64,000 bases of DNA from a phage: assembly GCA_024683775.1 (NCBI GenBank), contig GCA_024683775.1_4106.1; one strand, 5' to 3'. The position numbers were made by a program, and so were the translations under genes. The notes under the pieces are model-generated. The model was not told where the DNA came from. It was given only the letters and a program-made list of their open reading frames with translations, and did no database searches. Numbering within the stretch: position 1 is the stretch's first letter; every line of letters starts with the position of its first letter. Shown piece by piece: positions 28,571 to 63,465 of this stretch.

Positions 28571-29399
28571 TGAGTACTAGAGTGTAATAGAGTACAGGAA
28601 TGTGCTCGTTTAATCAAGAACGTAGCAGTACTGCCCCAAAAGTATTCAGTACTGAAGGTGTCGATATGCCACTAAGTAGGCAGAGGAAGTCTGCCGTACT
28701 TTGTAGTTTCCAAGCTCCTTTTCCATTTTGCAAATTACATCAAATGTAATCAAAAGTAATCACGCAATGATTAGTACTGAATTATTACTTTCACCTTAAT
28801 TTCAATTACCCTTTTACCCTTCGGGGTAAAATTCAATTACCCCTTGAGGCTCCAGCAAAAAGTTGGTTAGTACTCCATCCTAAATCTCGATCCTAAAAAT
28901 TTTGGAGTACCTATGAAATAAAAGTTGGATCTTCGAAAGTTGAAATTTACGTTGGGACGTTTATGATTTGTGGGATATAATGATGTTTGTAGTCGGGTAG
29001 TTCTCAAGAATATCAGTACTGAATGGTGAAAGAAAGTTATTGACATTATGATTCAGTACTGTATAATGTTCTACATAGGGTGATGAGTTGCTGCGAACAA
29101 TTCATTTACTCTACCTCCTGTCGTGAGACAGTACAGAAAAGATAGTTCCTCCTGTGGTGGTACATCTTTTTGAACCTCATATGAAAATCGTAATAACAGT
29201 ACTGATATTAACAGAATGGTATCAGTACTGATTTTAATCTAAAGCATTATGCCACCAGCACAAGCTGGTGGATTCCCTCTAACAGTATTCAGTACTACAT
29301 GATAGTCTTCATCCTCCTAGGGTAACATAGTGAGGGCTATGATGGCAGTACTGAATACTCCCTTTCAAAAGATAGATCTATGGTATAGTACTGACGGAT

Positions 29400-49512: not shown

Positions 49513-49652
49513 GGACTATGGCAAAATGCGTAGGGGGCTAAAGGGCGGGTAACCTTAGCGACTTCGATAAAGGGGTATTACTTATAAAATGTTATTGACT
49601 TTTTATATGAATCGTATATTATTGGATTGATATTATTTTTAATGGAGTCCCT

Positions 49653-49850
49653 ATGCGTATTTTAACTCAAGAAGAGCACAACCACACACTCATATCCAAC
49701 ATGGCATATATCCTACATATGTCACATATCCGTGGTATTGCATATAAGCGTGAATTGGTTATGAAACTTTTCATAGGAACTAACTATCAAGAAAAGTATA
49801 TCGAACTATACTTACAAGAATTACGAAGGGACATAAAAGGTAGACTATGA
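49653..49850 (+). CDS. LGTNYQ-family small protein, member 1
   Basis: 65-aa ORF; SD GGAG; core FIGTNYQEKY. Confidence 0.65.
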   Translation: MRILTQEEHNHTLISNMAYILHMSHIRGIAYKRELVMKLFIGTNYQEKYIELYLQELRRDIKGRL

Positions 49851-50047
49851 AAATGCGTATTTTAAATAAAGAAGATTATCAAGAACTGTTACGTAAAAAC
49901 ATGGTAAAGATTTATAACACAGACACAAACTTAGAACGAATTGAGTTATACCTTTTGATTACATTGGGAACAAGCTATCAGGGAAGATGGGTGATTCAAT
50001 ATATGGATGCATTGAAAAATGAAATATTATCCACGAGGAAACAATGA
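49847..50047 (+). CDS. LGTNYQ-family small protein, member 2
   Basis: ATGA overlap with previous stop; core LGTSYQGRW. Confidence 0.65.
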   Translation: MKMRILNKEDYQELLRKNMVKIYNTDTNLERIELYLLITLGTSYQGRWVIQYMDALKNEILSTRKQ

Positions 50048-50253
50048 AAACTATAACACGAACCCAATCATACGGTCTTATCTTGAGATACATGGACTTA
50101 ATGTTGGATATCAGAAAAGACCTTCCTAAAACTGCAATTGAAGTTGCAAGAGCAGAGATCCGCATGTTGGCTGTACTGAACACAAACCATCAGGAAGAGT
50201 ATGTTGACGATTGGATTCGATTTTTAATAGAAGATATTAAGAGGAAACTATGA
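50044..50253 (+). CDS. LGTNYQ-family small protein, member 3
   Basis: ATGA overlap; core VLNTNHQEEY. Confidence 0.65.
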   Translation: MKTITRTQSYGLILRYMDLMLDIRKDLPKTAIEVARAEIRMLAVLNTNHQEEYVDDWIRFLIEDIKRKL

Positions 50254-50462
50254 TTTTTTTAACACCAGAAGAATATAAGATACGTTTTGTTTCTGTCCAG
50301 AATAAAATCTTAATTATATACAATTCAAATGCAGACCTTAACTTATCAAGGGTATTAGAAAAAGATTTACTTATGGGTGCATTTTTGGATACAGACTTTC
50401 AGGTGTATTATGTAGGGGAATACTTAATTGCACTCCAGAATTACATTAAGAGTAAACTATGA
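50250..50462 (+). CDS. LGTNYQ-family small protein, member 4
   Basis: ATGA overlap; core FLDTDFQVYY; C-term ALQNYIKSKL. Confidence 0.65.
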   Translation: MIFLTPEEYKIRFVSVQNKILIIYNSNADLNLSRVLEKDLLMGAFLDTDFQVYYVGEYLIALQNYIKSKL

Positions 50463-50671
50463 ATAGCATTAACTCAAATCTATATACCGAACGCGTCGCT
50501 GCAAGACAACTTGAAATTCTCATAGTATATGAAGAGACTGATGATTTGAACTTAGCATTAGTATTGGAAAATGATATACTATTGGGTGCATTCCTCGGCA
50601 CAGATTATCAGGAGCACTTCTTGAATGAGTATATAATTGCACTCCAGAAATACATTAAGAGCAAACTATGA
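50459..50671 (+). CDS. LGTNYQ-family small protein, member 5
   Basis: ATGA overlap; core FLGTDYQEHF; close paralog of member 4. Confidence 0.65.
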   Translation: MNSINSNLYTERVAARQLEILIVYEETDDLNLALVLENDILLGAFLGTDYQEHFLNEYIIALQKYIKSKL

Positions 50672-50886
50672 AACATTTAAGTAATTCCGAGAAGAATAAA
50701 ATTATCATTGCTGCAATAAACAAATATTTTACACTTCCTCACACAGAAGGTTTATGTGTAAGGGAACACAGGATAAACACCACCGATATACGCATGATGG
50801 CTGTACTGGGGACGAACTTTCAGGAAGAGTATGTTGTTGCACACATAGTTGCCCTCACTGATCTAATAAGGGACAAATGTAAATGA
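50668..50886 (+). CDS. LGTNYQ-family small protein, member 6
   Basis: ATGA overlap; core VLGTNFQEEY. Confidence 0.65.
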   Translation: MKHLSNSEKNKIIIAAINKYFTLPHTEGLCVREHRINTTDIRMMAVLGTNFQEEYVVAHIVALTDLIRDKCK

Positions 50887-51140
50887 AACACTTAACACTA
50901 GATGAATATGAAACTATAGTCCGTAAACTAACCCCTATAGCAAGGATAGTCTACGATGACCCCAGCCTTACATGGAACCAAATGCGAGCTAAAGTTAATG
51001 AGCTATGGTTGCTGTACTTTATGGGGACTCAATATCAAGATAAGTTTTGCACAGAATATGTCGAACAATTAATGAATGTTATACAGGATAAACTAGATGA
51101 TTATTGGCTCACAAAACATGAAGACTTTATCAGGAGTTGA
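50883..51140 (+). CDS. LGTNYQ-family small protein, member 7
   Basis: ATGA overlap; core FMGTQYQDKF. Confidence 0.6.
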   Translation: MKHLTLDEYETIVRKLTPIARIVYDDPSLTWNQMRAKVNELWLLYFMGTQYQDKFCTEYVEQLMNVIQDKLDDYWLTKHEDFIRS

Positions 51141-51369
51141 GTATCAAACTGCCCTATTCTCTTTAATCCATACCCTTAGAAAAAACAATGCCTTACATGG
51201 TGCACCTGAAGTGGATGTTATCAACGGTGAACTTTATCTTATGAAATTCATTGGAACAAACTATCAAGATCTGTTCATTCAACGATACTTATCAGCATTA
51301 AGAAACCAAATCCAATATAAAACCATCAAGGCCAAAAAAGAATGGAATAAACAATGCGACACAGACTAA
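51118..51369 (+). CDS. LGTNYQ-family small protein, member 8
   Basis: Start chosen at ATG 51118 (tracked ORF starts 51097); core FIGTNYQDLF. Confidence 0.6.
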   Translation: MKTLSGVEYQTALFSLIHTLRKNNALHGAPEVDVINGELYLMKFIGTNYQDLFIQRYLSALRNQIQYKTIKAKKEWNKQCDTD

Positions 51370-51605
51370 ATCACAAAATGTATTGTAAACTATTACAGAC
51401 ACTGGCACAGAAACACTATGACACGGTATCTGGAATATTACCCTATGATATCATGCGTTTACTTCACTGTGAGGCCGAGATGCTTGTACTGATGACAGGC
51501 ACTGATAAAAAAGCAATTGTCAAATCAATAGATATGTTCATCGAAGCACAATGTCAACACATTAGAACCGAGATATGGAGGCGAGAGAATGATAACCCTA
51601 AATGA
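51354..51605 (+). CDS. LGTNYQ-family small protein, member 9 (divergent core LMTGTDKK)
   Basis: ORF in array; start uncertain. Confidence 0.5.
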   Translation: MRHRLNHKMYCKLLQTLAQKHYDTVSGILPYDIMRLLHCEAEMLVLMTGTDKKAIVKSIDMFIEAQCQHIRTEIWRRENDNPK

Positions 51606-51804
51606 GTTTCAGTATCATTGGAGATTACAAGCTATAAGAAGGAAAGTTGTTAGTATTTCTTTAGACAAGTCTATTGCACAAGAGGACAAATGTGTTATAA
51701 TAGCTGAAATGAAGTTGGGTGCTTTCGTAGGGACAAACTATCAAAACATCTACACTGACGTATTGTTAAGTGCCTTACGTAACAAGGTGATATCAAAAGA
51801 ATGA
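51589..51804 (+). CDS. LGTNYQ-family small protein, member 10
   Basis: core FVGTNYQNIY. Confidence 0.65.
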   Translation: MITLNEFQYHWRLQAIRRKVVSISLDKSIAQEDKCVIIAEMKLGAFVGTNYQNIYTDVLLSALRNKVISKE

Positions 51805-52019
51805 GAAAATTACAAGGCTTTGAATACATCAGACTCCTGAAAACATGCACCAGCAGAAGGAAAATCTTATCAAGCAACAAGAGCATCCCTGCCAACCTAA
51901 AACATGCAATGATAGCTGAACTCTATGTAGAAGCACTCATAGGGACAAACTATCAACAAATGTATATAGACATGTGGGTTGATGCATTAGTCAAGGAGAT
52001 CAAAAGTAAATGCAAATGA
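51801..52019 (+). CDS. LGTNYQ-family small protein, member 11
   Basis: ATGA overlap; core LIGTNYQQMY. Confidence 0.65.
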   Translation: MRKLQGFEYIRLLKTCTSRRKILSSNKSIPANLKHAMIAELYVEALIGTNYQQMYIDMWVDALVKEIKSKCK

Positions 52020-52228
52020 TTAATTTAAGTAAAGATGAATATTATGATCGTCTTGCAAAAACTTATCCAGCACGTAACGCCGTTTATAATAGTAACATTA
52101 TTGAACGCTCAAAGAAGTTGATTGTAGTAAATGAGATTAAGATGCTTTCAGTCTTAGGAACAAACTATCAAGAGAATGCTGTACTGTTGTTAATTGATGC
52201 CCTCAAGAGAGAGATACAAAGTAAATGA
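52010..52228 (+). CDS. LGTNYQ-family small protein, member 12
   Basis: core VLGTNYQENA. Confidence 0.65.
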   Translation: MQMINLSKDEYYDRLAKTYPARNAVYNSNIIERSKKLIVVNEIKMLSVLGTNYQENAVLLLIDALKREIQSK

Positions 52229-52461
52229 TTCATTTATCTTACCATGATTATCAAAAACGTTTAAATGCATCAAGGGATATAAGGATTCAAATCTTCAATA
52301 ACAAAAAATTGAAACCTGATAACAGAAGAATCAAAATGATAGAAGCAGAGTTATGCAACTTCCTGGGGACGAACTATCAGGCAGGTAAGGTAAAAAACTA
52401 TCTTAGAGAACTAATGAATTGTATCGAAAATAAATGCGATGCTTTGGAGAATAAAAAATGA
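52225..52461 (+). CDS. LGTNYQ-family small protein, member 13
   Basis: ATGA overlap; core FLGTNYQAGK. Confidence 0.65.
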   Translation: MIHLSYHDYQKRLNASRDIRIQIFNNKKLKPDNRRIKMIEAELCNFLGTNYQAGKVKNYLRELMNCIENKCDALENKK

Positions 52462-52715
52462 TCAATTTAAGTAAAGATGAATATACCGAGCGTATGACAA
52501 AAATTACACACAAACGTAATACAATCTATCACAACCAAAAAATTCAACACAGTAAGAAAATGATTATGATGCGTGAGTTAAAGATGGGTGTATTCTTGGG
52601 AACAAACTATCAAGAGCCAGAAGTAAATCGATTAATTGATGAGTTACTATTGGAAATCAAAGGTAAGCTGTACTTTTATCAAATGACCCGTCCACTAAGG
52701 TGTACTGATCGATGA
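52458..52715 (+). CDS. LGTNYQ-family small protein, member 14
   Basis: ATGA overlap; core FLGTNYQEPE; N-term MINLSKDEY like member 12. Confidence 0.65.
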   Translation: MINLSKDEYTERMTKITHKRNTIYHNQKIQHSKKMIMMRELKMGVFLGTNYQEPEVNRLIDELLLEIKGKLYFYQMTRPLRCTDR

Positions 52716-52954
52716 ATATTGTGAATAACATCAGATTAGCAGAAAGATTTGATAGAATTGGGGAAGCTATGAGAAGATACGATAAAGAATATGGTCATTT
52801 AAGCTTTACGATAGAAAAGAGATATGAACTTGAAGCAGAGTTTAAAATGCAGTTCCTTTTAGGTACACAGTATCAAAACCAATATGTAGAAAAATGGATT
52901 TCACTTTTAATCCAGACAATTTACGTAAGGAACATTAAATGCAAAATGAAATGA
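52712..52954 (+). CDS. LGTNYQ-family small protein, member 15
   Basis: ATGA overlap; core LLGTQYQNQY. Confidence 0.65.
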   Translation: MNIVNNIRLAERFDRIGEAMRRYDKEYGHLSFTIEKRYELEAEFKMQFLLGTQYQNQYVEKWISLLIQTIYVRNIKCKMK

Positions 52955-53175
52955 TATACTTAACACATGATGAGTTAACAGAAAGACTAGATAAATCCAA
53001 AAAACTTACAAAATATCTTCCACACAACCCAAACCAAACCCCAGCAGAAAGGAGTGCAGAAGTTTTATTCCAAACATTACCATACCTTCTTGGAACTGAT
53101 AGGCAAGAGTATCATATTGAACGTATAATTAAATATCTCAAAATTACTATTATGGAAAAAGTAAATGCAAAGTGA
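52939..53175 (+). CDS. LGTNYQ-family small protein, member 16
   Basis: core LLGTDRQEYH; N-term MQNEMIYLTHDEL. Confidence 0.6.
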   Translation: MQNEMIYLTHDELTERLDKSKKLTKYLPHNPNQTPAERSAEVLFQTLPYLLGTDRQEYHIERIIKYLKITIMEKVNAK

Positions 53176-53395
53176 AATGATATACTTAACGAATGAAGAA
53201 TTTCAAGAGAAGATGTTAAAAGCCAATAACATTACTCTTAAGTTCGTTCCAAATCAATCAATATATGAAATGTCTGCGAATGTATTGTTTCAGAAGCTAC
53301 CATACGTTCTTGGAACTGATAAACAAGAATTTATGGTTCAAAATATGATTGAACATCTTGTAATGAGTATTAAGGAAAAAGTAAATGCAAAATGA
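53165..53395 (+). CDS. LGTNYQ-family small protein, member 17
   Basis: core VLGTDKQEFM; N-term MQSEMIYLTNEEF; start could be the second ATG (53177). Confidence 0.6.
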   Translation: MQSEMIYLTNEEFQEKMLKANNITLKFVPNQSIYEMSANVLFQKLPYVLGTDKQEFMVQNMIEHLVMSIKEKVNAK

Positions 53396-53642
53396 AATGA
53401 AATACTTAACAGACGATGAGTTAAAAGAACGATTAATTAAATCCAGAAAACTTACAAATCAACTTCCAAACGACACAAACAAGTCACCTGCCGAAAGGAG
53501 TGCAGAAGTTTTATACATTCAACTCATGTACTTTCTTGGAACTGACAGACAAGAGTATTACATTGAAAGTATGCTTCGATATCTTAAATTCTCTATAAAG
53601 GAAAAGATACATGCTCAAGAATTTAAAAATCCTAACAGTTAA
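53385..53642 (+). CDS. LGTNYQ-family small protein, member 18
   Basis: core FLGTDRQEYY; paralog of member 16. Confidence 0.6.
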   Translation: MQNEMKYLTDDELKERLIKSRKLTNQLPNDTNKSPAERSAEVLYIQLMYFLGTDRQEYYIESMLRYLKFSIKEKIHAQEFKNPNS

Positions 53643-53868
53643 TGAATATCATAAGATTGTAATGAAAACTAATAGTGCAATTTCTAAAAAATCAAACCCA
53701 AAGTACATACTGGAACACACATTTGAAGAACGTCAATTAGCTTTAGTTGAAGCAAAACTTCTTGCACTCCTAGGAACAAACTATCAGGAAGAATACATCA
53801 GAAAACTAATATACCTTTTAACTAAACACATCAGGAAAAGAAAAAAGCATGAAGCACTTGACAGATGA
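53611..53868 (+). CDS. LGTNYQ-family small protein, member 19
   Basis: core LLGTNYQEEY. Confidence 0.6.
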   Translation: MLKNLKILTVNEYHKIVMKTNSAISKKSNPKYILEHTFEERQLALVEAKLLALLGTNYQEEYIRKLIYLLTKHIRKRKKHEALDR

Positions 53869-54079
53869 TGAACATGGGCTTATAGTAATGGATGTAATCA
53901 ACATCGAATACAAAAAGTTGATACGCTACCGTTGTTATGAAGATAAGCAACTCGTTCTAGCAGAACAGAAGTTGTTTCGACTCTTAAACACAAACTTCCA
54001 AGCACAATACGAAGAATCGTATATGTACCTTTTGGCGAGGAAAGCAAAAAGAGATTATGAAAATTTTAAGCCACAGTGA
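53849..54079 (+). CDS. LGTNYQ-family small protein, member 20
   Basis: core LLNTNFQAQY. Confidence 0.6.
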   Translation: MKHLTDDEHGLIVMDVINIEYKKLIRYRCYEDKQLVLAEQKLFRLLNTNFQAQYEESYMYLLARKAKRDYENFKPQ

Positions 54080-54272
54080 ACAAACAGAATTGTTAATCTT
54101 TAATACAAGTAAATTCTTAAACATAACATTGTCTGATATAGATGAGGATGAAAAAGAGTTACTTAGAGCAGATTTAAGAGTTCTTTTATATATTGGAACT
54201 AACTTCCAAGAGCAATTCGTTGAGGACTACATCGATGAACTTAAAGAATCTGTACTGAGAACATGCAAATGA
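54057..54272 (+). CDS. LGTNYQ-family small protein, member 21
   Basis: core YIGTNFQEQF. Confidence 0.6.
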   Translation: MKILSHSEQTELLIFNTSKFLNITLSDIDEDEKELLRADLRVLLYIGTNFQEQFVEDYIDELKESVLRTCK

Positions 54273-54505
54273 AAATCCTTTCACCAAGTGAATACCACGA
54301 ACTATTAAGTAGTTTAATTCTAAAATTGTATATAGCAAAGACCACAGATTTACCTGATGAAGAAAAAAATATTCTAATGAGTGAAATCTATGTTAATTCT
54401 ACCCTAGGGACTAACTATCAAGAATGTAATATTAATGATTACATCAAAGAACTAAAAAGGTTTATCCAATGCAAATGCGAATCATTACTGAAACAGAATA
54501 CCTAA
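54263..54505 (+). CDS. LGTNYQ-family small protein, member 22
   Basis: core TLGTNYQECN; N-term MQMKILSPSEY. Confidence 0.6.
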   Translation: MQMKILSPSEYHELLSSLILKLYIAKTTDLPDEEKNILMSEIYVNSTLGTNYQECNINDYIKELKRFIQCKCESLLKQNT

Positions 54506-54711
54506 CAATCTTAAATGGACTGTTTTTGAAGTTATTTGCCATTAACACATCAAAACTACCAGATACTGATAAAATTATTAAGTTAAATGAAATCTATGTT
54601 CAAGCTACACTGGGAACTAACTATCAAGAAGCCAATGTGTATAATTACATTAATACACTCAAAAGGGTAATAAAATTAAAATGCACAAACAGCCAATACA
54701 CAAACCCCTAG
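54469..54711 (+). CDS. LGTNYQ-family small protein, member 23
   Basis: core TLGTNYQEAN; close paralog of member 22. Confidence 0.6.
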   Translation: MQMRIITETEYLTILNGLFLKLFAINTSKLPDTDKIIKLNEIYVQATLGTNYQEANVYNYINTLKRVIKLKCTNSQYTNP

Positions 54712-54911
54712 GAACAGCAGAATACATTGAACTAATGGCTGCAAACTTCTCATCCTTTAAGAAACTGATGCAAGAATCAAATAATGATTTAGAATATCAC
54801 ATCAAAAGTTCAGATTTAAGATTGCTACTCACTCTAGGAACAGATTCCCAAGAGCGATTTGTCAATGAGCATATTAGAGCACTTTTAAATGGCATCAGGA
54901 ATAAACTATGA
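54681..54911 (+). CDS. LGTNYQ-family small protein, member 24
   Basis: core TLGTDSQERF. Confidence 0.6.
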   Translation: MHKQPIHKPLGTAEYIELMAANFSSFKKLMQESNNDLEYHIKSSDLRLLLTLGTDSQERFVNEHIRALLNGIRNKL

Positions 54912-55123
54912 AGGAAATATCAAATCAAGAGTACTTGGCACTATTCAGGAAGAATAATCACAAATATATGGCACTTGATTCAAGAACTGATATAAGTGAA
55001 CTTCAGAAAAATCTTTTGCGTTCAGAGATGATAGTACTGACACTCTTAGGAACACAGCATCAAGAGAGAACTGTTAATTCACACATAGAGATTCTTATGC
55101 AGATAGTACAGGAAAAGATATGA
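54908..55123 (+). CDS. LGTNYQ-family small protein, member 25
   Basis: ATGA overlap; core LLGTQHQERT. Confidence 0.65.
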   Translation: MKEISNQEYLALFRKNNHKYMALDSRTDISELQKNLLRSEMIVLTLLGTQHQERTVNSHIEILMQIVQEKI

Positions 55124-55341
55124 GAATCATAACACAACAAGATATTCTTAAGTTCACAAGGGTTCATGCATCTGAATTTGATGCTATATTATCAAAAAGT
55201 TACAACAACCCTTATACAGAAGATGTACATTACAGTGAATTATGGATGTATATACTTTTAGGTACAAATAAGCAAGAGCAAGCAGTACAGAAGTATTTGA
55301 CAGCTTTACGTGATGCTACAGCTAATGGAGTACGTGTTTAA
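55120..55341 (+). CDS. LGTNYQ-family small protein, member 26
   Basis: ATGA overlap; core LLGTNKQEQA. Confidence 0.65.
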   Translation: MRIITQQDILKFTRVHASEFDAILSKSYNNPYTEDVHYSELWMYILLGTNKQEQAVQKYLTALRDATANGVRV

Positions 55342-55342
55342 T

Positions 55343-55594
55343 ATGAAAGTACTGACAGAACTAGAAATGTATCATAGATTTAATAAGTACTATCATTTAC
55401 TTAAGCCTATACAGAGGATTAAATGTCCATTTGAAGAGAAACAGGTTTTAATCTATGAGCACAAGTTCTTTGTATCATTAGGTACAGATCAACAAGAGTA
55501 CTATTTGACGTTGTACTTGATTACATTAATAGATTTCATTCACTATAAAACCACACAATCTAAACAAGCTAATAAAGAGAAATATGAAAACTAA
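55343..55594 (+). CDS. LGTNYQ-family small protein, member 27
   Basis: Start chosen at ATG 55343 right after previous stop (tracked ORF starts 55310); core SLGTDQQEYY. Confidence 0.6.
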   Translation: MKVLTELEMYHRFNKYYHLLKPIQRIKCPFEEKQVLIYEHKFFVSLGTDQQEYYLTLYLITLIDFIHYKTTQSKQANKEKYEN

Positions 55595-55922
55595 TATAAA
55601 ACTCAAGGTATATAAATCATTTGCAAGTACATACATCAAATGCCATACATGTAACTCTGTAATGGACTACAAAGGTAAGCCATTTGCACTTACTTATGAT
55701 AATACAAGAGGTTTTTATATATCTTTTGCTGATTACAAATATAACATGTACGAACACATTGACATTGAAGATTTAAGTACTTTATCTGAAGAGGAATACT
55801 TTCAAGAATCATTAGTATGGGATTTGGAGTTTCCTATGCCATTAGTACATAAAATGATAGTACTAATAAAAGAAACTAAACCTGTACCTAATGGTTATGA
55901 AGAACACATTATTGAGTATTAA
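55584..55922 (+). CDS. EE-FQ family protein (112 aa); near-duplicate of 55937
   Basis: C-terminal half DLSTLSEEEYFQESLVWDLEFPMPLVHKMIVLIKETKP almost identical to the next gene; cysteines C-x2-C near N-terminus. Confidence 0.65.
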   Translation: MKTNIKLKVYKSFASTYIKCHTCNSVMDYKGKPFALTYDNTRGFYISFADYKYNMYEHIDIEDLSTLSEEEYFQESLVWDLEFPMPLVHKMIVLIKETKPVPNGYEEHIIEY

Positions 55923-55936
55923 TATATAAGGTAACT

Positions 55937-56278
55937 ATGAAAACTAATATACAACTCAATGTATACAGTTCAGAAGAACATACATATATCAAATGCAGTC
56001 TATGTAAAGATGTAATGGACTACAAAGGTAAGCCATTCACAATTACTTATGATTCTGATGTTAATGATTTATATATATCATTTCTTAATTACGAAAAGAA
56101 AATATACAAGCACGTTGATATTAAAGATTTAAGTACTTTATCAGCAGAGGAATACTTTCAAGAATCATTAGTATGGGATTTAGAATTTCCTATGCCATTA
56201 GTACATAAAATGGTAGTCCTAATGAAAGAAGCTAAACCGGAGTTTAATGGTTATGAAGAACACATCGTTGAGTACTGA
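55937..56278 (+). CDS. EE-FQ family protein (113 aa); near-duplicate of 55584
   Basis: SD AAGG; C-terminal half near-identical to the previous gene. Confidence 0.65.
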   Translation: MKTNIQLNVYSSEEHTYIKCSLCKDVMDYKGKPFTITYDSDVNDLYISFLNYEKKIYKHVDIKDLSTLSAEEYFQESLVWDLEFPMPLVHKMVVLMKEAKPEFNGYEEHIVEY

Positions 56279-56281
56279 ACA

Positions 56282-56497
56282 ATGAAAATATTATCATACG
56301 AAGATTACCGCAAGCTTCGCGGTATTTTGCGACCAGAAATTCAAAGAATTAATTCTCTTCCTATATCTAATGCAGAATGTTCAGTACTGAAAGATGAGTT
56401 AATATTAAAACACACAGTAGGAACTAACTATCAAGCTGATAGTGTTCGATATCTAATTTGGGGATTAATATGCATAGTAAAGGAAAAACAAGCTTGA
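56282..56497 (+). CDS. LGTNYQ-family small protein, member 28
   Basis: 71-aa ORF; core TVGTNYQADS. Confidence 0.6.
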   Translation: MKILSYEDYRKLRGILRPEIQRINSLPISNAECSVLKDELILKHTVGTNYQADSVRYLIWGLICIVKEKQA

Positions 56498-56553
56498 CAG
56501 TACTTTTCATTACTGATATAGTACCTGTACGTTAATCATTAGGGTAGAAAATT

Positions 56554-56799
56554 ATGTTGAATTTTTTAAATTTCCTTATCGTCTTGTGTATTGTTCTTGG
56601 GATTGCACCATTTGTATTGTATTTCATGGATTCCGATGAAATGCAAAAGATGAATTGCACAAGGACAGGACAGAGTAGAGAAGAGACGATTCTTATGCCT
56701 GTTACCGTTATTGTTAATAATATGCCCATTACAAACATGGTCCCTACCCTAACGACAACGTACCAGTACTCTTGTACAGACGGAGAGAGGTGGAGATAA
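56554..56799 (+). CDS. small membrane protein (81 aa), N-terminal TM helix
   Basis: N-term MLNFLNFLIVLCIVLGIAPFVLYF; promoter-like CTTGACA at 56505; SD AGGGTAGAAAA. Confidence 0.55.
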   Translation: MLNFLNFLIVLCIVLGIAPFVLYFMDSDEMQKMNCTRTGQSREETILMPVTVIVNNMPITNMVPTLTTTYQYSCTDGERWR

Positions 56800-57122
56800 T
56801 GCGTAAGTTCAATTGTATTGTACGTAAGAATTCATGTTACATTGTAGTAGCTGATTTTAATACAGGTTCTGGGTTGAAGATATTTGAGTACAGAAAATGC
56901 AATAATTCTTTTCATTGGAAATTGGGTGCAAGAAAAGCAAAAACAATTTCAGTACCGAATTTATGTTCTATCTCTGAAGAAGAAGAGTTTCAGTACTTGT
57001 TAGTACATGATGATTCTTTAGGATTTACATTCGAAGATATGAAGGAAGTACAAAAGCAGATGATTGCACATTGTCATCTTCCACCGAATTTTGTTCAACG
57101 CGTATGTGAATTCTACATATAA
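56799..57122 (+). CDS. EE-FQ family protein (107 aa)
   Basis: Start chosen at ATG 56799 overlapping the upstream TAA, SD GGAGAGAGGTGGAG; motif EEEEFQYLLVHDDSLGF. Confidence 0.6.
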   Translation: MRKFNCIVRKNSCYIVVADFNTGSGLKIFEYRKCNNSFHWKLGARKAKTISVPNLCSISEEEEFQYLLVHDDSLGFTFEDMKEVQKQMIAHCHLPPNFVQRVCEFYI

Positions 57123-57131
57123 GAGAAGAAT

Positions 57132-57443
57132 ATGAAATTTAATATAGCAAAAACATCGAGTATATGTATTTTTGGTTATGCAGAAGAGTTAGGTGATATT
57201 GACATTCTTTTGTACAAAAAGGATGGTGTTATGCATTTCAAGTACCAGGATGAAGAGGCAGACAATTATCTTTTACCTAATTTAGTACAAATGCAGGAAG
57301 AGGAATTATTCCAGTACAGCTTAATATACGACATTGATATTTGCACGATGCCAGTATTAATTAGTATTCAAAAAGTGATGCTCGATATGTATGATAATTT
57401 AATACAAGGTACAGCAGGGATAACCAAACATGTCAATATATAA
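57132..57443 (+). CDS. EE-FQ family protein (103 aa)
   Basis: SD AGAGAAGAA; motif EEELFQYSLIYDIDICTMP. Confidence 0.6.
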   Translation: MKFNIAKTSSICIFGYAEELGDIDILLYKKDGVMHFKYQDEEADNYLLPNLVQMQEEELFQYSLIYDIDICTMPVLISIQKVMLDMYDNLIQGTAGITKHVNI

Positions 57444-57636
57444 GGATTTACCTAATGCATATATGTTGAAGTATAAAGAGTTTATTAAAGATGTATATGT
57501 AGATCCGTTCAATATAAAATTATCAGAGTTCGATGTATCATTTTATCTAGGGACAATAGTACAGGAACAATACGTTGATAAGCTCATAAGGTGCATGAAA
57601 AATGAGATTCGATGGAGATTAGATGCAAATGTATAA
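57430..57636 (+). CDS. LGTNYQ-family-like small protein, member 29 (core YLGTIVQEQY)
   Basis: 68-aa ORF with a divergent family core. Confidence 0.55.
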   Translation: MSIYKDLPNAYMLKYKEFIKDVYVDPFNIKLSEFDVSFYLGTIVQEQYVDKLIRCMKNEIRWRLDANV

Positions 57637-57880
57637 AAAGATAGATGCTTATTTGTATGCTTCAAAGTACAGGGATTTTTGTTTACGAGGGGGAGAGGAA
57701 GATTTCGCTCTGAGATTATCTGAATTTAATATGTTATTTTATCTTGGTACAAAAGAACAAGAAGATACAGTACAGAAATTTCTCAATCATCTTGTACAAA
57801 AAATTAATATGCAAATTTTGATGCTTAAGTTACAGAATGAGATAAATGAATATGAATCCAGAAATAGTTCAGGATCTTAA
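57623..57880 (+). CDS. LGTNYQ-family-like small protein, member 30 (core YLGTKEQEDT)
   Basis: 85-aa ORF, paralog of 57430. Confidence 0.55.
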   Translation: MQMYKKIDAYLYASKYRDFCLRGGEEDFALRLSEFNMLFYLGTKEQEDTVQKFLNHLVQKINMQILMLKLQNEINEYESRNSSGS

Positions 57881-58256
57881 AAAAGTAATATTTCTTTTGA
57901 ATACAAGAAGCTCTTTATATAAGGAGTTCAAGGATATTAAAACATCGTGTAATATAGATTTTTTTGAAACCATACATGCGGAGTTTCGTGATTTAATTGC
58001 AGATGCATTGTTTGAATTTTCCGAGAAATATCAAGGTACAGTCTTCGGTGTTAAGAATGTTCTTCGTCCAAGTACAGGTACAAGGAAGATTGAGTTATCA
58101 CATTTTACAATTGGTAACAACGATTTATTCAGTTATAACCCCAGTACATCTTTATATTTTATTCCTGTTTCAGACAAAAATCATCCTATTCATTACGGAT
58201 GGATTATATCTTATACAATAAATGGAACGGAGTATCCTATCAAATGGCACGATTAG
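57846..58256 (+). CDS. hypothetical protein (136 aa)
   Basis: ORF overlapping the previous gene's 3' end. Confidence 0.5.
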   Translation: MNMNPEIVQDLKKVIFLLNTRSSLYKEFKDIKTSCNIDFFETIHAEFRDLIADALFEFSEKYQGTVFGVKNVLRPSTGTRKIELSHFTIGNNDLFSYNPSTSLYFIPVSDKNHPIHYGWIISYTINGTEYPIKWHD

Positions 58257-58396
58257 GGTGTGAAGATTATAATATGAATATATTATTAAGAAATATTAAT
58301 GCAGATTATTGTGTATGGGTTAAGAATAGAGATATGATGTATTATGATTTTTATTTAGATTGTGCCATTAAGCGTTATTTGAGGGAAGAATTTTAA
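58244..58396 (+). CDS. small hypothetical protein (50 aa)
   Basis: Start chosen at ATG 58244 overlapping the upstream stop (tracked ORF starts 58199 inside the previous gene); uncertain. Confidence 0.35.
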   Translation: MARLGCEDYNMNILLRNINADYCVWVKNRDMMYYDFYLDCAIKRYLREEF

Positions 58397-58578
58397 TGAA
58401 ATCATATGAAGCAAGAACATTTGATGATTTAAATAATTCATTGATTACAAGCATTAAGATGTATTACAATATACATTTAAAGGGTGGAATTAATGATTTT
58501 AGTTATTATCTTAGTGCAATATTACAAGAGCATTTAAATTATCAAGATCGTTTATTACATCCAAATCCACCAAATTAA
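58396..58578 (+). CDS. small hypothetical protein (60 aa)
   Basis: ORF overlapping the previous stop (TAATG). Confidence 0.45.
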   Translation: MKSYEARTFDDLNNSLITSIKMYYNIHLKGGINDFSYYLSAILQEHLNYQDRLLHPNPPN

Positions 58579-58589
58579 GGAATACCAAT

Positions 58590-59150
58590 ATGAATGATAT
58601 TGAGTTATTGGTACATAAGATTTGCACAATATCGTTAGTGCTGAACAATGCGAATACAGTACAGAGTTCCCTTTTAAGAATTAATAAAGTTGGGAGTAGT
58701 TTATATTTGGAAGTAAAAGCTGGTTTTGCAGGACAGTACAATGATAAAATCAAAGAAGAAGTTAAGGGAAATGAAGATGCTTTCATTGAGGTTTGTGCAA
58801 CAGTTGGTTCAAATCCAATTTCAGTATCACCTTTAATGCGAAATGAAAATTCAGAATTTGATTCCAGTTTTGAAGGTTATTTGTGGTACAATTATGGTGA
58901 TGATTATTTTATATATCAAAATTCCAAAACGGATTATAGTGAAGAAGGTATAAAATTCATTGATCCTTACAATGAAGCAGAAGTATTTCAGACATCCCTA
59001 ATATACAATACAAATCAAATGAAGTATCTTATGTTGTTTAGTACAATGCATTTGAATCCATTGAAAGATAATTTAAAATTTTTCATTCGTTTAGAATTAG
59101 TTGATATTGCTTATGATCTTTTAATGCAAGGATATAGTTATGAAGTATAA
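58590..59150 (+). CDS. EE-FQ family protein (186 aa)
   Basis: SD AAGGAATA; motif EAEVFQTSLIYNTNQM. Confidence 0.6.
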   Translation: MNDIELLVHKICTISLVLNNANTVQSSLLRINKVGSSLYLEVKAGFAGQYNDKIKEEVKGNEDAFIEVCATVGSNPISVSPLMRNENSEFDSSFEGYLWYNYGDDYFIYQNSKTDYSEEGIKFIDPYNEAEVFQTSLIYNTNQMKYLMLFSTMHLNPLKDNLKFFIRLELVDIAYDLLMQGYSYEV

Positions 59151-59451
59151 AATGCTGTATACATTAACATTAATATATGTAGAATTAGAATCCGATTCAG
59201 ATGCATGGAATTTGGTTAAAGAGGTCGATACCAATCAATGGTACATGGCAAATTTAGACGAACATGTTGTTACGGATTATTTTATAGATTTTAATACATT
59301 ATCTGAAGAAGAATTTTTCCAAATGCAATTGGTGGTTGACATGTACGGACATGACATGGTAACATTAAGAAATATACAGAAAGTCGTTAATGAATTCCAA
59401 AGCAAGAAAGATTATGAGGTAGGAGCGTATTATGACATCGACGTACAGTGA
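59140..59451 (+). CDS. EE-FQ family protein (103 aa); paralog of 59457
   Basis: Motif LSEEEFFQMQLVVDMYGHD; N-term MKYKMLYTLTLIYVELESD. Confidence 0.6.
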   Translation: MKYKMLYTLTLIYVELESDSDAWNLVKEVDTNQWYMANLDEHVVTDYFIDFNTLSEEEFFQMQLVVDMYGHDMVTLRNIQKVVNEFQSKKDYEVGAYYDIDVQ

Positions 59452-59456
59452 AAGCA

Positions 59457-59798
59457 ATGAGTACAATAGTTATGATATATAAAATGCTTTATACAGTATC
59501 GGGGATATATGTAGAATTAGAACCCGATTATCCAGATGGATGGAATTTTATTAAACGCTCCGAAAGAAATACATGGCACATGGCACATTTGGATAATGAC
59601 GTAATATTAGACAATTTTGTGGATTTTAATACATTATCAGAAGAAGAATTCTTCCAAATGCAATGTGTGCTTGACACAAAAGGATTTGATGTGCTATTAT
59701 TAAAGAATATACAGAAAGCTGTTAACGAATTAATATCCAATGACGAGTTAGGCAAAGTGAGGCTGTTCCATGATCTCGAAGTACCGTACCAGCAATGA
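59457..59798 (+). CDS. EE-FQ family protein (~113 aa); paralog of 59140
   Basis: Tracked ORF begins at GTG 59448; first ATG is 59457, and ATG 59472 (MIYKMLYTV) is also possible; motif LSEEEFFQMQCVLDTKGFD. Confidence 0.55.
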   Translation: MSTIVMIYKMLYTVSGIYVELEPDYPDGWNFIKRSERNTWHMAHLDNDVILDNFVDFNTLSEEEFFQMQCVLDTKGFDVLLLKNIQKAVNELISNDELGKVRLFHDLEVPYQQ

Positions 59799-60339
59799 AA
59801 TTCAGTACACCTACGCTAATGCAATCCTAATGGGACAAAAGTTAGCTTGTATTGTTGCAGCCTTATATAATGTACAAAAAGCAGCACATAATAAAAAACC
59901 ATATACAAGAATCATTAACGCATTCATGGGGTTTAAACCATCTGATTTTGATTCACATATTGCGTGCACAAGTTATTTTGACAAACGATTCAATACACCT
60001 GATACCCCAAATGCCCGTAGTGTTATTAGTCTTTTACAGTTTAATCCAACACCAGTTATATCAAAGAATGATTTGGATTACACATGGTACAATTCAAATC
60101 AAGATTCATTTTATTCTAATGATCAATCGATTGAATATAATAAAATTAAATCAGAGGAAGCATTTTTTCAGGAATCATTATTTACACATGAACGTTCTTT
60201 GTTTTATAGTGTTATGTTGAGTACAGTATACAATAGTCCATTACACAAGAATAACAAAATTAATTTCAGTTTTTGTGCTTATGCGATTGATGGTGTTTAT
60301 GAGTGCTTAATGGAGGTATTGAGTTATGAAGCTGAATAA
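59770..60339 (+). CDS. EE-FQ family protein (189 aa)
   Basis: Motif EEAFFQESLFTHERSLF; overlaps previous gene by 29 nt. Confidence 0.55.
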   Translation: MISKYRTSNEIQYTYANAILMGQKLACIVAALYNVQKAAHNKKPYTRIINAFMGFKPSDFDSHIACTSYFDKRFNTPDTPNARSVISLLQFNPTPVISKNDLDYTWYNSNQDSFYSNDQSIEYNKIKSEEAFFQESLFTHERSLFYSVMLSTVYNSPLHKNNKINFSFCAYAIDGVYECLMEVLSYEAE

Positions 60340-60667
60340 TACATTTGATATTAAGAAGTTAAGAGAATGGTTTTATAGTATTGAAATTGAAGCCATTCCT
60401 TATCATAGATATGAACAAAGTGATTTACAAAGTATTGATATCAGAGAGTTGTACAAATATTATCAGAGTGCATTAGAGATGCATAAGTTATTTTTGAGTA
60501 CAAATTTCATTCTAAATTACAATTTTGAGGAATTTAATAATTATAATTTAGTACAGAAATATGTAGTAGCAAAGTACATGTACAATCAAGGTATCAAAGG
60601 TTGCCTCGAATTCAATACCGTTCTTATTTTAGTTGAGGTAATTTTATGCACCGCATGTCTGATTTAG
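60326..60667 (+). CDS. hypothetical protein (113 aa)
   Basis: ORF overlapping neighbours on both sides. Confidence 0.5.
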   Translation: MKLNNTFDIKKLREWFYSIEIEAIPYHRYEQSDLQSIDIRELYKYYQSALEMHKLFLSTNFILNYNFEEFNNYNLVQKYVVAKYMYNQGIKGCLEFNTVLILVEVILCTACLI

Positions 60668-61143
60668 AGTTCAGTTTAGATGCAGCCTTTAAATTTGTTC
60701 ACAAAATTGAAACAATATATCGTACATTATGTGCAATAACATCAGTATCAAAAGAGTTTGATGTTGGTGAAAGGTATCAGGTGTGGAATAATTCATTTTA
60801 TAATAAAGAACATTCTGCGACGGCATTTTATATTTTAGCATTTAATCCCAGCAATTGTTACCCAGAGAAGCATGAACGTTATCCAAATGACGACATGTGG
60901 TTTGAGTACAAAGAAGATGCTGATATGTCGTCAATTGTAGTTCCTGATGATTTTAATGCACAAGATTTAACAGAAGAGTGGTGGTTCCAGCAGAATTTAG
61001 TACATGATGATATTGATTTATTTTTCTATATTGCATTTAAAATGCTTTATCACAACAATATAGTTAAAGAAAGTTTATCGTTTTCATGTCTATATATTGA
61101 TGATTTGTACAATGAAATTCAAATAAACATGCCTGTATCGTAA
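60646..61143 (+). CDS. EE-FQ family protein (165 aa)
   Basis: Motif EEWWFQQNLVHDDIDLFFY. Confidence 0.6.
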   Translation: MHRMSDLEFSLDAAFKFVHKIETIYRTLCAITSVSKEFDVGERYQVWNNSFYNKEHSATAFYILAFNPSNCYPEKHERYPNDDMWFEYKEDADMSSIVVPDDFNAQDLTEEWWFQQNLVHDDIDLFFYIAFKMLYHNNIVKESLSFSCLYIDDLYNEIQINMPVS

Positions 61144-61215
61144 GATATGGGCTTTTTTTGTTTGACACGAGTACAAATGCATGGTACAATGTGTAATCAT
61201 TTTAAGGAGATACCT

Positions 61216-61791
61216 ATGGAAAATTTTAAAATACCAGATGATTTCAATTCAGTACAAGAGATTGTACACAAGGTTCATTATATTTTTAATGAATTAATTA
61301 TTGCCAATTCATCCGGTATGCAAATTGAGTTAAAGGATATTGATAGAGAAGAAGTTTTTTTGGGTTCCCCAAATTCAATCATTCCTTTTTATGGACAAGA
61401 TCGTTTATGGTTCATGAGAGATACCCCAATTGACAAATACAAAATACAAACAAAATCAGAGTTTTATTCTATTTTTGAATATCTTAATATTACATTACAA
61501 ACACAAGATATAAATGCAATAAGTGCCATGAGTGCTGAGGAATATTTTCAGTACAGTACATTGCATAGTCCAGAAGAAATCTTTGTTGTTATGCTCGTTG
61601 CAAAATTAAGTACAGTTGATTTTGGGACGTACCCAAATAAATCATTCAAGATTATTATTCCTGCATTCGTTGATCTTTATGATTTCATTGTGCACAAGAA
61701 AGAAAGTACAGTGTACGATATGTATCGTTCAAATATCAGTTTATTTGCATCAAGTGCAGTAAATGCAGTGATTACAGGGGAATTAAAATGA
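61216..61791 (+). CDS. EE-FQ family protein (191 aa)
   Basis: Start chosen at ATG 61216 after TTTGACA-N17-TACAAT promoter-like box (61163-61191) and AAGGAG SD; motif AEEYFQYSTLHSPEEIF. Confidence 0.65.
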   Translation: MENFKIPDDFNSVQEIVHKVHYIFNELIIANSSGMQIELKDIDREEVFLGSPNSIIPFYGQDRLWFMRDTPIDKYKIQTKSEFYSIFEYLNITLQTQDINAISAMSAEEYFQYSTLHSPEEIFVVMLVAKLSTVDFGTYPNKSFKIIIPAFVDLYDFIVHKKESTVYDMYRSNISLFASSAVNAVITGELK

Positions 61792-62396
61792 ACATAGACC
61801 AATTAATGAAGTACAGTACAAGTGCAATCACAGTGCTAAGTAAAGCATTAGATTCATTCAATGCTAAGTACCCTGAAGGTTCAGAGTTAAATATTCCTTT
61901 TACCACAGAGGGGATTGTTGATACGTACATTGTAAACATCAGTAGTACAGGTATTGTTTTGAAGCAAAAGTACGGCGAAAGTGAATATTATGGATTGAAG
62001 CTGGATAATATTTCAGGAGAGAAGACACCTTATGAGTTTTGGGTTCCGAATAACATTGAGTCATGGAAAACAAATATTAATAAGAGAGACGAAAGAAATT
62101 TACCTCTTGTACAAAATAATGAAAAAAGAATTGATGTATTTTATTATTACAGTACAGCCCAGTTTCCAGAAGAGATTTATTTAAATTCAGAGGTGCATGA
62201 AGATATTGAATCATTTTTCTTTCAGTTATCATTGGTACAGGATATCATGCCTGTGCAAATGTTCAGGGATGAAATAAATTTAGCGAAAGAGATTTCGGAT
62301 ATGTTACCTGAATTTAGTGTTCTTTATGGTAGTAGAGCTTTACCTGAAAATGTTTACAAAGAATTTATTTCCATTGTTAAAGGGTTGAATATATAA
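61788..62396 (+). CDS. EE-FQ family protein (202 aa)
   Basis: ATGA overlap; motif ESFFFQLSLVQDIMPV. Confidence 0.6.
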   Translation: MNIDQLMKYSTSAITVLSKALDSFNAKYPEGSELNIPFTTEGIVDTYIVNISSTGIVLKQKYGESEYYGLKLDNISGEKTPYEFWVPNNIESWKTNINKRDERNLPLVQNNEKRIDVFYYYSTAQFPEEIYLNSEVHEDIESFFFQLSLVQDIMPVQMFRDEINLAKEISDMLPEFSVLYGSRALPENVYKEFISIVKGLNI

Positions 62397-62397
62397 T

Positions 62398-62592
62398 ATG
62401 ACCGCCTATGATATCAAACAAAGGCATACGAAGTTTGATTTGTTCACATACCAATTCCACAATGATATAGTGAATTTTAACATCAATGCGTCATTGCATC
62501 CTACATCACAAGATGATTTTGACAACAGAGTGCTTAACATCGTGGTGCTTTTGTGTTATAATCATTTCAGTGAATATTTTAACACAAGATAA
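62398..62592 (+). CDS. small hypothetical protein (64 aa)
   Basis: ORF 1 nt after previous stop. Confidence 0.45.
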   Translation: MTAYDIKQRHTKFDLFTYQFHNDIVNFNINASLHPTSQDDFDNRVLNIVVLLCYNHFSEYFNTR

Positions 62593-62605
62593 GGTTGAGG
62601 CACAC

Positions 62606-63124
62606 ATGTATCAGGCCAAGTACAATACATCATATGCATTTGCACACAACATTTTGAAGATCATCAAAGCGTTAGAGGGTGGATTGCTTAGTCATAAGTA
62701 CACCAAAGTAGGTGACAATTGGTTCAGAAATGATGATGAGTTCAGAAGTCATAAGATTGTTTACAGCAATAATTACAGTGCTAATTACCTTCAGGATGTT
62801 GCTATGTGCTTCGAATACGTGTTACAGTTCAGGGGTTCCATCAGTCCTGAGCTAAGAGAACACATGTACATTCGATACCTACCAATGCTTAAGGATGAGA
62901 AAACAATATTCAATTCAGTACACCACAGAGTACGAGAGAGAACATTCAGGGATATTTTAGAAGATGAAGCTGCATATTTCCAGCAATCATTGATTGATGC
63001 TCCTGATGTGTTACAGATGCAGAATTTGTATAATGTATTAGATGCGAACATCGATACGGATATCTTTTTTTCCTTAAGTGATTATGAAACATTTTTGGAA
63101 GATTTAAAGGAAATAGGATTATGA
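62606..63124 (+). CDS. EE-FQ family protein (172 aa)
   Basis: Start chosen at ATG 62606 with SD AAGGTTGAGG; motif EAAYFQQSLIDAPDVL. Confidence 0.6.
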   Translation: MYQAKYNTSYAFAHNILKIIKALEGGLLSHKYTKVGDNWFRNDDEFRSHKIVYSNNYSANYLQDVAMCFEYVLQFRGSISPELREHMYIRYLPMLKDEKTIFNSVHHRVRERTFRDILEDEAAYFQQSLIDAPDVLQMQNLYNVLDANIDTDIFFSLSDYETFLEDLKEIGL

Positions 63125-63465
63125 GTAGATTTTCAGTTTATATAGTAAACGTCAGTAAAGATGGTAGTTTAATTGAATTTGATGTAGTTGATGACAATGA
63201 TAATTCATATGGTATTAAGGTACAGGACAATGATGTACAGTTCAGTACAAGGACAAATTTTGAGAATCCAGTCCAAGTTCCGAATTTCATAGAAGATGAA
63301 GCTGCACGATTCCAATACGAAACGGCCTTTGATAATTTAGCGATGCATATTATTATGCAACAAAGTTTAGTTCAATTGCTTCAGGTATTCAGACAAAATA
63401 TATATGTACATGAAGTGTCGATTAATGGCATTCAAAGTTCCGTTTTGTTCGGTACAAATATGTAA
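63121..63465 (+). CDS. EE-FQ family protein (114 aa)
   Basis: ATGA overlap; motif EAARFQYETAFDNLAM. Confidence 0.55.
   Translation: MSRFSVYIVNVSKDGSLIEFDVVDDNDNSYGIKVQDNDVQFSTRTNFENPVQVPNFIEDEAARFQYETAFDNLAMHIIMQQSLVQLLQVFRQNIYVHEVSINGIQSSVLFGTNM

Follow-up and report, generated by a model that had tools for sequence, protein, structure and literature searches.

The window analysed here, a stretch of 64,000 nucleotides of phage DNA (contig GCA_024683775.1_4106.1 of assembly GCA_024683775.1), contains a tandem array of small genes that we refer to as the EE-FQ family, and this study deals with two pairs of neighbouring members, named by their start positions: 55584/55937 (pair 1, copies A and B) and 59140/59448 (pair 2, copies C and D). 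Both pairs are true tandem paralogues and are old rather than newly duplicated, and the near-identical C-terminal block that unites the copies of pair 1 is due to purifying selection on the signature module of the family, not to youth. Most probably, the pairs are best seen as stacked allelic lineages, with the module being held by selection and copy number being driven by recombination.

Matches of the region 55000-60500 place the source of the window among the Asteriusvirus-type jumbo phages of Escherichia coli (121Q/PBECO4 group). This region matched 34 phage records, all from jumbo phages of E. coli or Salmonella in the 121Q/PBECO4 group, with Asteriusvirus as the genus in those records that name one, and the top matches were Ecwhy_1 (96.4%), WPEC5, CMSTMSU and EC.P1 (97.7% over 96% of the query).

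The initial annotation had described a near-identical block of 50 C-terminal residues in 55584 and 55937, and the block indeed reads as described, with 43 of the final 50 residues being identical. Over their full length, copies A and B share 70% amino acid identity (BLASTP E value of 6e-56) and 82.1% nucleotide identity in a codon alignment. Similarly, the motifs MLYT and IYVELE.D and a further motif that had been noted for pair 2 are common to both copies, and the shared stretches were KMLYT, IYVELE.D and DFNTLSEEEFFQMQ; here, amino acid identity amounted to 55% (E value of 1e-35) and nucleotide identity to 71.5%. When the pairs were compared with the rest of the family at the nucleotide level, as the initial annotation had suggested, the remaining 76 family pairs showed a median codon-aligned identity of only 43.9% with a maximum of 53%, and the two pairs, which are well beyond both the family background and chance, are therefore the closest ones in the family. 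Copies A and B also form the closest paralogue pair in the part of the window from 49 to 64 kb, where no pair exceeds 82% nucleotide identity.

Close as they are, the pairs are not the very recent duplications that had been proposed. Synonymous divergence (dS) and non-synonymous divergence (dN) were calculated by the method of Nei and Gojobori (NG86) on protein-guided codon alignments, giving a dS of 0.30 and a dN of 0.19 for pair 1 and a dS of 0.60-0.64 and a dN of 0.31 for pair 2. For calibration, each gene between 49.6 and 63.5 kb was paired with the best match over its full length from each of nine related phages, and medians were taken over 34-47 genes; in this mosaic region best-hit orthology can take paralogues for some genes, an effect that the use of medians limits. 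The median dS of orthologues was 0.02-0.05 for EC.P1, fEgEco12, Ecwhy_1, WPEC3, WPEC5 and vB_Ec-M-J, 0.25 for ph0011, 0.37 for PBECO4 and 0.47 for 121Q. Silent-site divergence within the pairs is 6- to 25-fold that between this phage and its sister isolates, and it about equals that between species of the genus, which makes the copies at least as old as these species. Sister phages that carry the doublets hold both copies of each doublet at 93-99% amino acid identity, and the pairs must therefore predate the separation of those isolates. Also, the copies within one genome are not each other's nearest relatives, as copy A is 85.9% identical at the nucleotide level to 121Q gp342 versus 81.8% to copy B, and copy D is 87% identical to 121Q gp350 versus 71.5% to copy C.

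The distribution of changes along the genes explains why the C-terminal block looks young. In pair 1, dS was 0.20 for codons 1-34, 0.32 for codons 35-63 and 0.36 from codon 64 to the end, the last part containing 8 synonymous differences in 28 synonymous sites, while dN/dS amounted to 1.14 and 1.23 in the two N-terminal segments and to 0.19 (dN 0.069) in the C-terminal one. Clearly, the N- and C-terminal parts differ in their non-synonymous changes (Fisher p = 3.6e-5) but not in their synonymous ones (p = 0.56). A 14-residue motif of pair 2 behaves in the same manner, with no non-synonymous change and 2 of 6 synonymous sites changed. The C-terminal block of pair 1 was nearly invariant in twelve further alleles that were aligned or read, including those of 121Q, PBECO4 and ph0011, and was equally conserved in further alleles from protein databases. 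Since dS within the block is undiminished while the amino acids are kept, the identity reflects purifying selection on a constrained module. For the N-terminal part, a dN/dS close to 1 suggests relaxed or diversifying selection.

Comparison of the 34 records showed which copy corresponds to the gene of phages having only one. Pair 1 is double in 5 of these records and single in the other 29. Copy A was found at 93-99% amino acid identity in fEgEco12, EC.P1, vB_Ec-M-J, WPEC3 and Turkey3, shares only 70-78% identity with the gene of the 29 singlet records, and is absent from Ecwhy_1 and WPEC5, both of them close relatives. Copy B is 97% identical to the singlet of Ecwhy_1, 86-88% to those of WPEC5, ph0011 and PBECO4, and 75% to 121Q gp342. 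Pair 2 is double in 8 records, which form a fEgEco12-like subgroup and contain copy C at 97-99% amino acid identity, and single in 26, to whose gene copy C is at most 59% identical. Copy D shares 78% amino acid and 87% nucleotide identity with 121Q gp350 at a dS of 0.27; the upstream context of gp350 is kept by copy C and the downstream context by copy D. Copies B and D are the orthologues of the single-copy genes. Three start codons are candidates for copy D, GTG at 59448, ATG at 59457 (the position given in the initial annotation) and ATG at 59472, and one of the two ATG codons is the likely one; ATG 59472 aligns with the start of 121Q gp350 and was used by two GenBank annotators.

Copy A lies in its native upstream context and overlaps with the gene before it in just the way seen in the singlets, and the spacer between copies A and B holds an AAGG Shine-Dalgarno-like element serving copy B. 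In its middle third, copy A is 86% identical at the nucleotide level to 121Q and 70% to copy B, and in its 3' third it is 92-93% identical to the singlets of WPEC5, ph0011 and 121Q and 89% to copy B; copy A was thus not derived from its neighbour.

To score mosaicism, the 61 sites that separate copy A from copy B were read in other alleles. Copy A of WPEC3 is A-type up to nucleotide 282 and B-type from nucleotide 288, and its 3' end is a conversion or crossover tract from the neighbouring copy. Three alleles that occur as one copy each at the same locus are mosaics as well: P0012 begins as A-type and changes to B-type between nucleotides 249 and 277, within the conserved block, P0004 has the order A/B/A, and P0003 is of the form 121Q/A. 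A- and B-type sequences thus represent two lineages of alleles at one locus, which recombine freely through the conserved stretches; some genomes hold both in tandem, and some doublets have evidently collapsed to chimeric singlets. The chimeric singlets and the conversion tract show that unequal recombination is still going on. The gene 5' of pair 1 (55310-55594) is 99% identical at the amino acid level to its counterparts in EC.P1, fEgEco12, WPEC3 and WPEC5, and 88% identical to that of Ecwhy_1 (dS 0.16), while WPEC5, which is without copy A, carries a PBECO4-like B allele. These differences in flank and allele indicate that the two singlet states within the subgroup come from different recombination events.

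Other members of the family come and go as well. An extra long-type member lies between the homologues of 58590 and 59140 in EC.P1, WPEC3, WPEC5, fEgEco12 and vB_Ec-M-J, and an extra short-type member follows the homologue of 56282 in several relatives; neither is present in the window. In locus L004 of EC.P1, the additional EE-FQ genes are located at 9314-9820 (168 amino acids, long-type) and 5471-5833 (120 amino acids, short-type). Such comparisons show that genes are gained or lost within a very short time. Of the proposed continuing expansion of the family, the variation of copy number among close relatives is borne out, but there is no young copy, the highest identity being 82%, and the dynamics are better described as birth-and-death with recombination.

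We propose that the conserved stretches, namely the first ~20 nucleotides, the VMDYKGKPF region and the C-terminal block, would act as substrates for crossover. Unequal exchange through them could pile up two divergent alleles in tandem or collapse a doublet to a chimeric singlet, short conversion tracts would pass between neighbouring copies, and recombination among related phages would keep copy number polymorphic at both loci. A very recent tandem duplication in place, in which identical blocks have simply not yet diverged, would account for pairs that are adjacent, equally oriented and the most similar in the family, and for the absence of the extra copies from most relatives. It is nevertheless highly improbable, as the pairs are far more divergent at silent sites than the phage is from its doublet-carrying sisters, dS is as high within the identical block as outside, copy A has a nearer relative in 121Q gp342 than in copy B, and every paralogue pair between 49 and 64 kb stays at or below 82% nucleotide identity. 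Hardly better is the chance of young duplicates whose N-terminal parts then diverged very rapidly under positive selection. The dN/dS values, which exceed 1 over the first 63 codons of pair 1, and the variability of this region in all alleles would be expected from it, but synonymous divergence is also high and uniform along the gene, and A-type blocks are found in single-copy genes elsewhere (121Q, P0003, P0004 and P0012) and are therefore older than the doublet-bearing phages.

Concerted evolution, in which old copies have their C-terminal block kept identical by gene conversion between neighbours, could draw on the B-type 3' end of WPEC3 copy A and on the conserved stretches, which would promote such exchange. 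We consider it unlikely, because block dS in the window is 0.36 and thus not below that of the rest of the gene, the block is equally conserved in the 29 one-copy records, where there is nothing to convert with, and the 3' third of copy A is nearer to the singlets of WPEC5, ph0011 and 121Q than to its neighbour. A single old duplication in the ancestor of the genus, followed by separate losses or collapses in the majority of lineages, is a possible explanation that we judge to be the less probable one. The dS within the pairs is similar in magnitude to that of the deepest splits of the genus, chimeric singlets such as P0012 resemble collapsed doublets, and the tandem array of the family is older than the genus, as seen from an Erwinia phage (see below); many independent losses would be needed, however, with 29 of 34 and 26 of 34 records being single-copy, and the doublets occur within a single subgroup of close relatives only. 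It differs from the stacking of allelic lineages only in the source of the second copy and, because of the confinement of doublets to one subgroup, we lean towards unequal exchange between phages with different alleles as the origin of the doublets. Several points weigh against our interpretation. The data fit allele stacking and ancient duplication with repeated collapse alike; no more than 61 (pair 1) and 56 (pair 2) synonymous sites of a genome with 31% GC underlie the dS values, and NG86 is approximate in such an AT-rich genome; the N-terminal dN/dS, obtained from 33 synonymous sites, is not significantly above 1; and when the source of the 14-nucleotide spacer between copies A and B was sought, no informative second copy was found within the window.

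A family profile made from 33 sequences and used with hmmsearch detected exactly 13 open reading frames (ORFs) of the window, all four pair genes included, which span 55584-63465. They have in common the signature ..LSEEE.FQ.SLV.D, with a helix and a terminal strand behind it, and the FQ dipeptide is invariant in alignments of the 13 and of the 33 sequences. With the same profile, 10-18 members were counted per related locus, these loci covering unequal parts of the array. An unrelated ORF (60326-60667) lies amid the six 3' members. As Ecwhy_1 has five more members 3' of the point equivalent to the end of the window, the array probably runs on beyond it. In comparisons with PHROG clusters, 59140 and 59448 matched phrog_33987 (E values of 3.8e-41 and 9.4e-54), 57132 matched phrog_13866 (3.4e-38), and 55584 and 55937 matched the latter in the motif region (2e-9 and 2e-7).

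A word-indexed search of 5.8 billion proteins led to 40 relatives, whose named sources were Asteriusvirus phages or E. coli assemblies, except for one short contig filed under an actinomycete. P0014, an 87-residue fragment of a pair-1 gene from a 1-kb contig filed under Actinomadura adrarensis and carrying the UniRef name DUF2283, is probably phage contamination with a misleading name. P0024, in which another N-terminus is joined to the pair-1 C-terminal block, was not relied on, as it comes from a 662-bp contig with 0.3x coverage. When 1.84 billion cluster representatives were searched exhaustively with a profile, only 24 clusters were recovered, the more distant of which bear the motif [IV]P[DN]L..LSEEE.FQ.SLVWD. 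Six distant clusters, employed as a combined query against a phage collection, gave distant matches only, with the Erwinia jumbo phage Hallingskeid being the best at 33% identity; the distant metagenomic member P0058 had no match in this collection. At the very end of the Hallingskeid record (locus L018, 47-9305) there are at least 12 tandem EE-FQ genes, short ones (108-131 amino acids) first and long ones (150-250 amino acids) after, a layout like that of the window. Because it is also present in this Erwinia phage, the tandem array predates the genus, and from the searches made the family is confined to jumbo phages of the 121Q/RaK2 type. For a RaK2 protein, the same fold was predicted (TM-score 0.71).

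An AlphaFold2 model of copy B, based on an alignment of 33 sequences, reached a mean predicted local distance difference test score (pLDDT) of 81 and a predicted TM-score of 0.75. It contains five strands, the motif as a short turn and a helix, a second helix and a final strand; AEEYFQESL forms the helix of residues 70-78, and block mean pLDDT was 87-94 over residues 61-90. The N-terminal beta-sheet part is fast-evolving, and the C-terminal module, [IV]P[DN]L..LSEEE.FQ.SLV.D plus helix and strand, is strongly constrained. The model of the long-type protein 59770 was unusable (pLDDT 41). Searches of the family proteins against NCBIfam and PADLOC gave no match, Pfam gave sub-threshold noise only, and the best PDB sequence had an E value of about 0.9. 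Membership in DUF2283 (PF10049) was rejected, as residues 36-62 of copy B, and of copy B only, scored 12.9 bits (E value of 0.13) versus a Pfam gathering threshold of 23 bits. The sequence E-E-Y-F-Q recalls the site of tobacco etch virus (TEV)-type proteases (E-x-x-Y-x-Q); this was set aside as well, since the model places the motif with confidence within a helix of a folded domain and nothing points to such a protease.

The EE-FQ genes lie within ~15 kb of the presumed left terminal repeat, read inward, and are small, tightly packed and without cellular homologues. Their counterparts in phage phAPEC6 are gp450c-gp470c, none of which is among the 62 proteins detected in phAPEC6 virions (PMC7247149), as would be expected of proteins with a non-structural role. 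On the grounds of repeat-proximal position, inward reading, lack of cellular homologues and non-virion counterparts in phAPEC6, we tentatively suggest, by analogy, that the genes may encode early-expressed accessory proteins in which the constant module would fold or dock in a common way and the variable sheet would provide copy-specific host targets. Three points count against this suggestion: virion mass spectrometry can miss small proteins, sigma-70-like promoter matches were not enriched (see below), and the literature searched contained no expression data or transcriptome for the genus, so that early timing and the host-interaction role rest on position and analogy. More speculative still, and rather doubtful, is the idea that the array constitutes an adaptor library, with the C-terminal module docking on one partner (a host protease or polymerase, or a phage effector) and the N-terminal sheets picking different host targets, for example defence proteins. 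If this were true, the stacking and shuffling of alleles would amount to an exchange and widening of repertoires between co-infecting jumbo phages in an arms race.

Table 1. Features of the EE-FQ array and its surroundings (positions in the 64,000-nucleotide window).
Feature	Position	Strand	Basis or remark
Equivalent of the left direct terminal repeat of fEgEco12	28675-49534	+	alignment and published repeat length
27 small LGTNYQE genes, directly 5' of pair 1	49653-55594	+	motif scan, alignment
Pair 1, copy A, 112 amino acids	55584-55922	+	ORF; second lineage of alleles of the 121Q gp342-type gene
Copy A, conserved C-terminal block, residues 63-112, DLSTLSEEEYFQESLVWDLEFPMPLVHKM...	55770-55919	+	signature module of the family
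Spacer between copies A and B, 14 nucleotides, TATATAAGGTAACT	55923-55936	+	read directly
Pair 1, copy B, 113 amino acids	55937-56278	+	orthologue of the gene that most Asteriusviruses have in one copy
Copy B, conserved C-terminal block, residues 64-113	56126-56275	+	signature module of the family
Two short EE-FQ genes	56772-57122, 57132-57443	+	alignments with invariant FQ; family profile
Long-type EE-FQ gene, 186 amino acids, motif NEAEVFQTSLIY	58590-59150	+	alignment; family profile; phrog_19795 (E value of 4.5e-50)
Pair 2, copy C, 103 amino acids	59140-59451	+	extra copy, in the fEgEco12-like subgroup only
Pair 2, copy D	59448-59798	+	orthologue of 121Q gp350
Six EE-FQ genes	59770-60339, 60646-61143, 61147-61791, 61788-62396, 62486-63124, 63121-63465	+	family profile

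A second tandem family, named after its LGTNYQE motif, is found next to the EE-FQ genes. It comprises 30 genes of 65-94 amino acids, as three further copies (56282-56497, 57430-57636 and 57623-57880) lie among the EE-FQ genes, and none of them had a Pfam match. The closest pairs in this family are 52939/53385 (64% amino acid and 79% nucleotide identity) and 50250/50459 (56% amino acid identity). Kinship of the two families, considered on account of a common Y/F-Q-E motif, was rejected at an hhalign probability of 0.5%. In EC.P1 (locus L004, 6570-7379), a gene for a 269-residue protein that combines an N-terminal LGTNYQE-type domain with an unrelated C-terminal part of ~200 residues is located between the homologues of 56772 and 57132; the window does not contain this fusion gene.

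The EE-FQ array is also broken up by an 81-residue ORF (56554-56799) that has a hydrophobic N-terminus and putatively encodes a membrane protein. Just 5' of it, at 56494-56522, lies the best intergenic sigma-70-like match (TTGACA, 17 nucleotides, TATAGT, with an extended TG). Sigma-70-like matches were not enriched, as 92 were found versus 88.5 expected from shuffled sequences, and the scan for promoters and terminators gave nothing above shuffled sequence. On the plus strand at 61131-61152, a terminator-like hairpin followed by a T-run is found at the end of gene 60646-61143 and overlaps with the beginning of 61147; a boundary between transcription units may lie here within the array.

The position of the arrays relative to the genome end was deduced from fEgEco12. 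From ~28 kb to the end of the window, small ORFs are densely packed on the plus strand, and both coding strand and GC skew switch near 28 kb. Position 1 of the fEgEco12 genome corresponds to position 28675 of the window, and the alignment is collinear through 52 kb. The direct terminal repeats of fEgEco12 comprise 20,993 bp and are experimentally supported (PMC13070987). The inner boundary at 49534 is an extrapolation from the fEgEco12 alignment; the LGTNYQE array begins ~120 bp and the EE-FQ array ~6 kb inside this extrapolated boundary, both on the plus strand and reading inward. In the assembly of the window, the terminal repeat seems to be collapsed or circularly permuted. At the other end of the window (962-23470, minus strand) there are ~19 tandem paralogues of 358-449 amino acids with Pfam matches to RCC1 repeats (beta-propeller). 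The virion proteome of phAPEC6 includes 'DNA condensation proteins' of 30-42 kDa (gp003-gp010, gp549 and gp551; PMC7247149), which are probably the counterparts of these RCC1-repeat genes.

When neighbouring phage genes share a long identical protein block, they are readily taken to be young; in the present case, the identity is a matter of constraint. The constrained module would serve as functional core and as recombination handle at once, with variable parts being re-assorted between alleles and copy number shifting within the time that it took near-identical isolates to part. For now, we see here the usual dynamics of phage genomes in an uncharacterised family; the sequences are already in GenBank as hypothetical proteins of near-identical phages, and the shuffling of tandem paralogues by homologous recombination is well known. 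If members of the family prove to be host-interaction proteins, their constant-plus-variable layout would guide experiments.

The window proteins match PHROG 13866, 33987, 15629, 19795 and relatives, clusters of unknown function; PHROGs splits the family into several such clusters, and neither the linking EE-FQ module nor the selection pattern is described there. For RaK2-like jumbo phages, which belong to the same group, paralogous families are a trait named in the literature: about 10% of the products of RaK2 are paralogous (PMC3622015) and 22 ORFs of CBB fall into paralogous families (PMC5259590). As far as the passages searched in these two papers go, they report the same kind of tandem paralogues without database homologues and count them, and do not describe this family, its motif, its position beside the repeat or the shuffling of alleles. 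No description of the EE-FQ family was found in the literature searched.

If the repeat lies where the fEgEco12 alignment places it and belongs to the leading end, the array would be comparable, in its location and inward direction, to the pre-early genes of T5 and the host-takeover genes of SPO1, phages with long terminal repeats. Poxviruses possess terminal multigene families, or 'genomic accordions', in which arrays of paralogous accessory genes near the ends differ in copy number between close isolates and fast-evolving target-binding parts are joined to a conserved module. Under acute selection, these accordions produce bursts of nearly identical new copies. In contrast, the EE-FQ array is without young copies (82% nucleotide identity at most), and its likeness to the poxvirus families would be one of layout and of copy-number variation.

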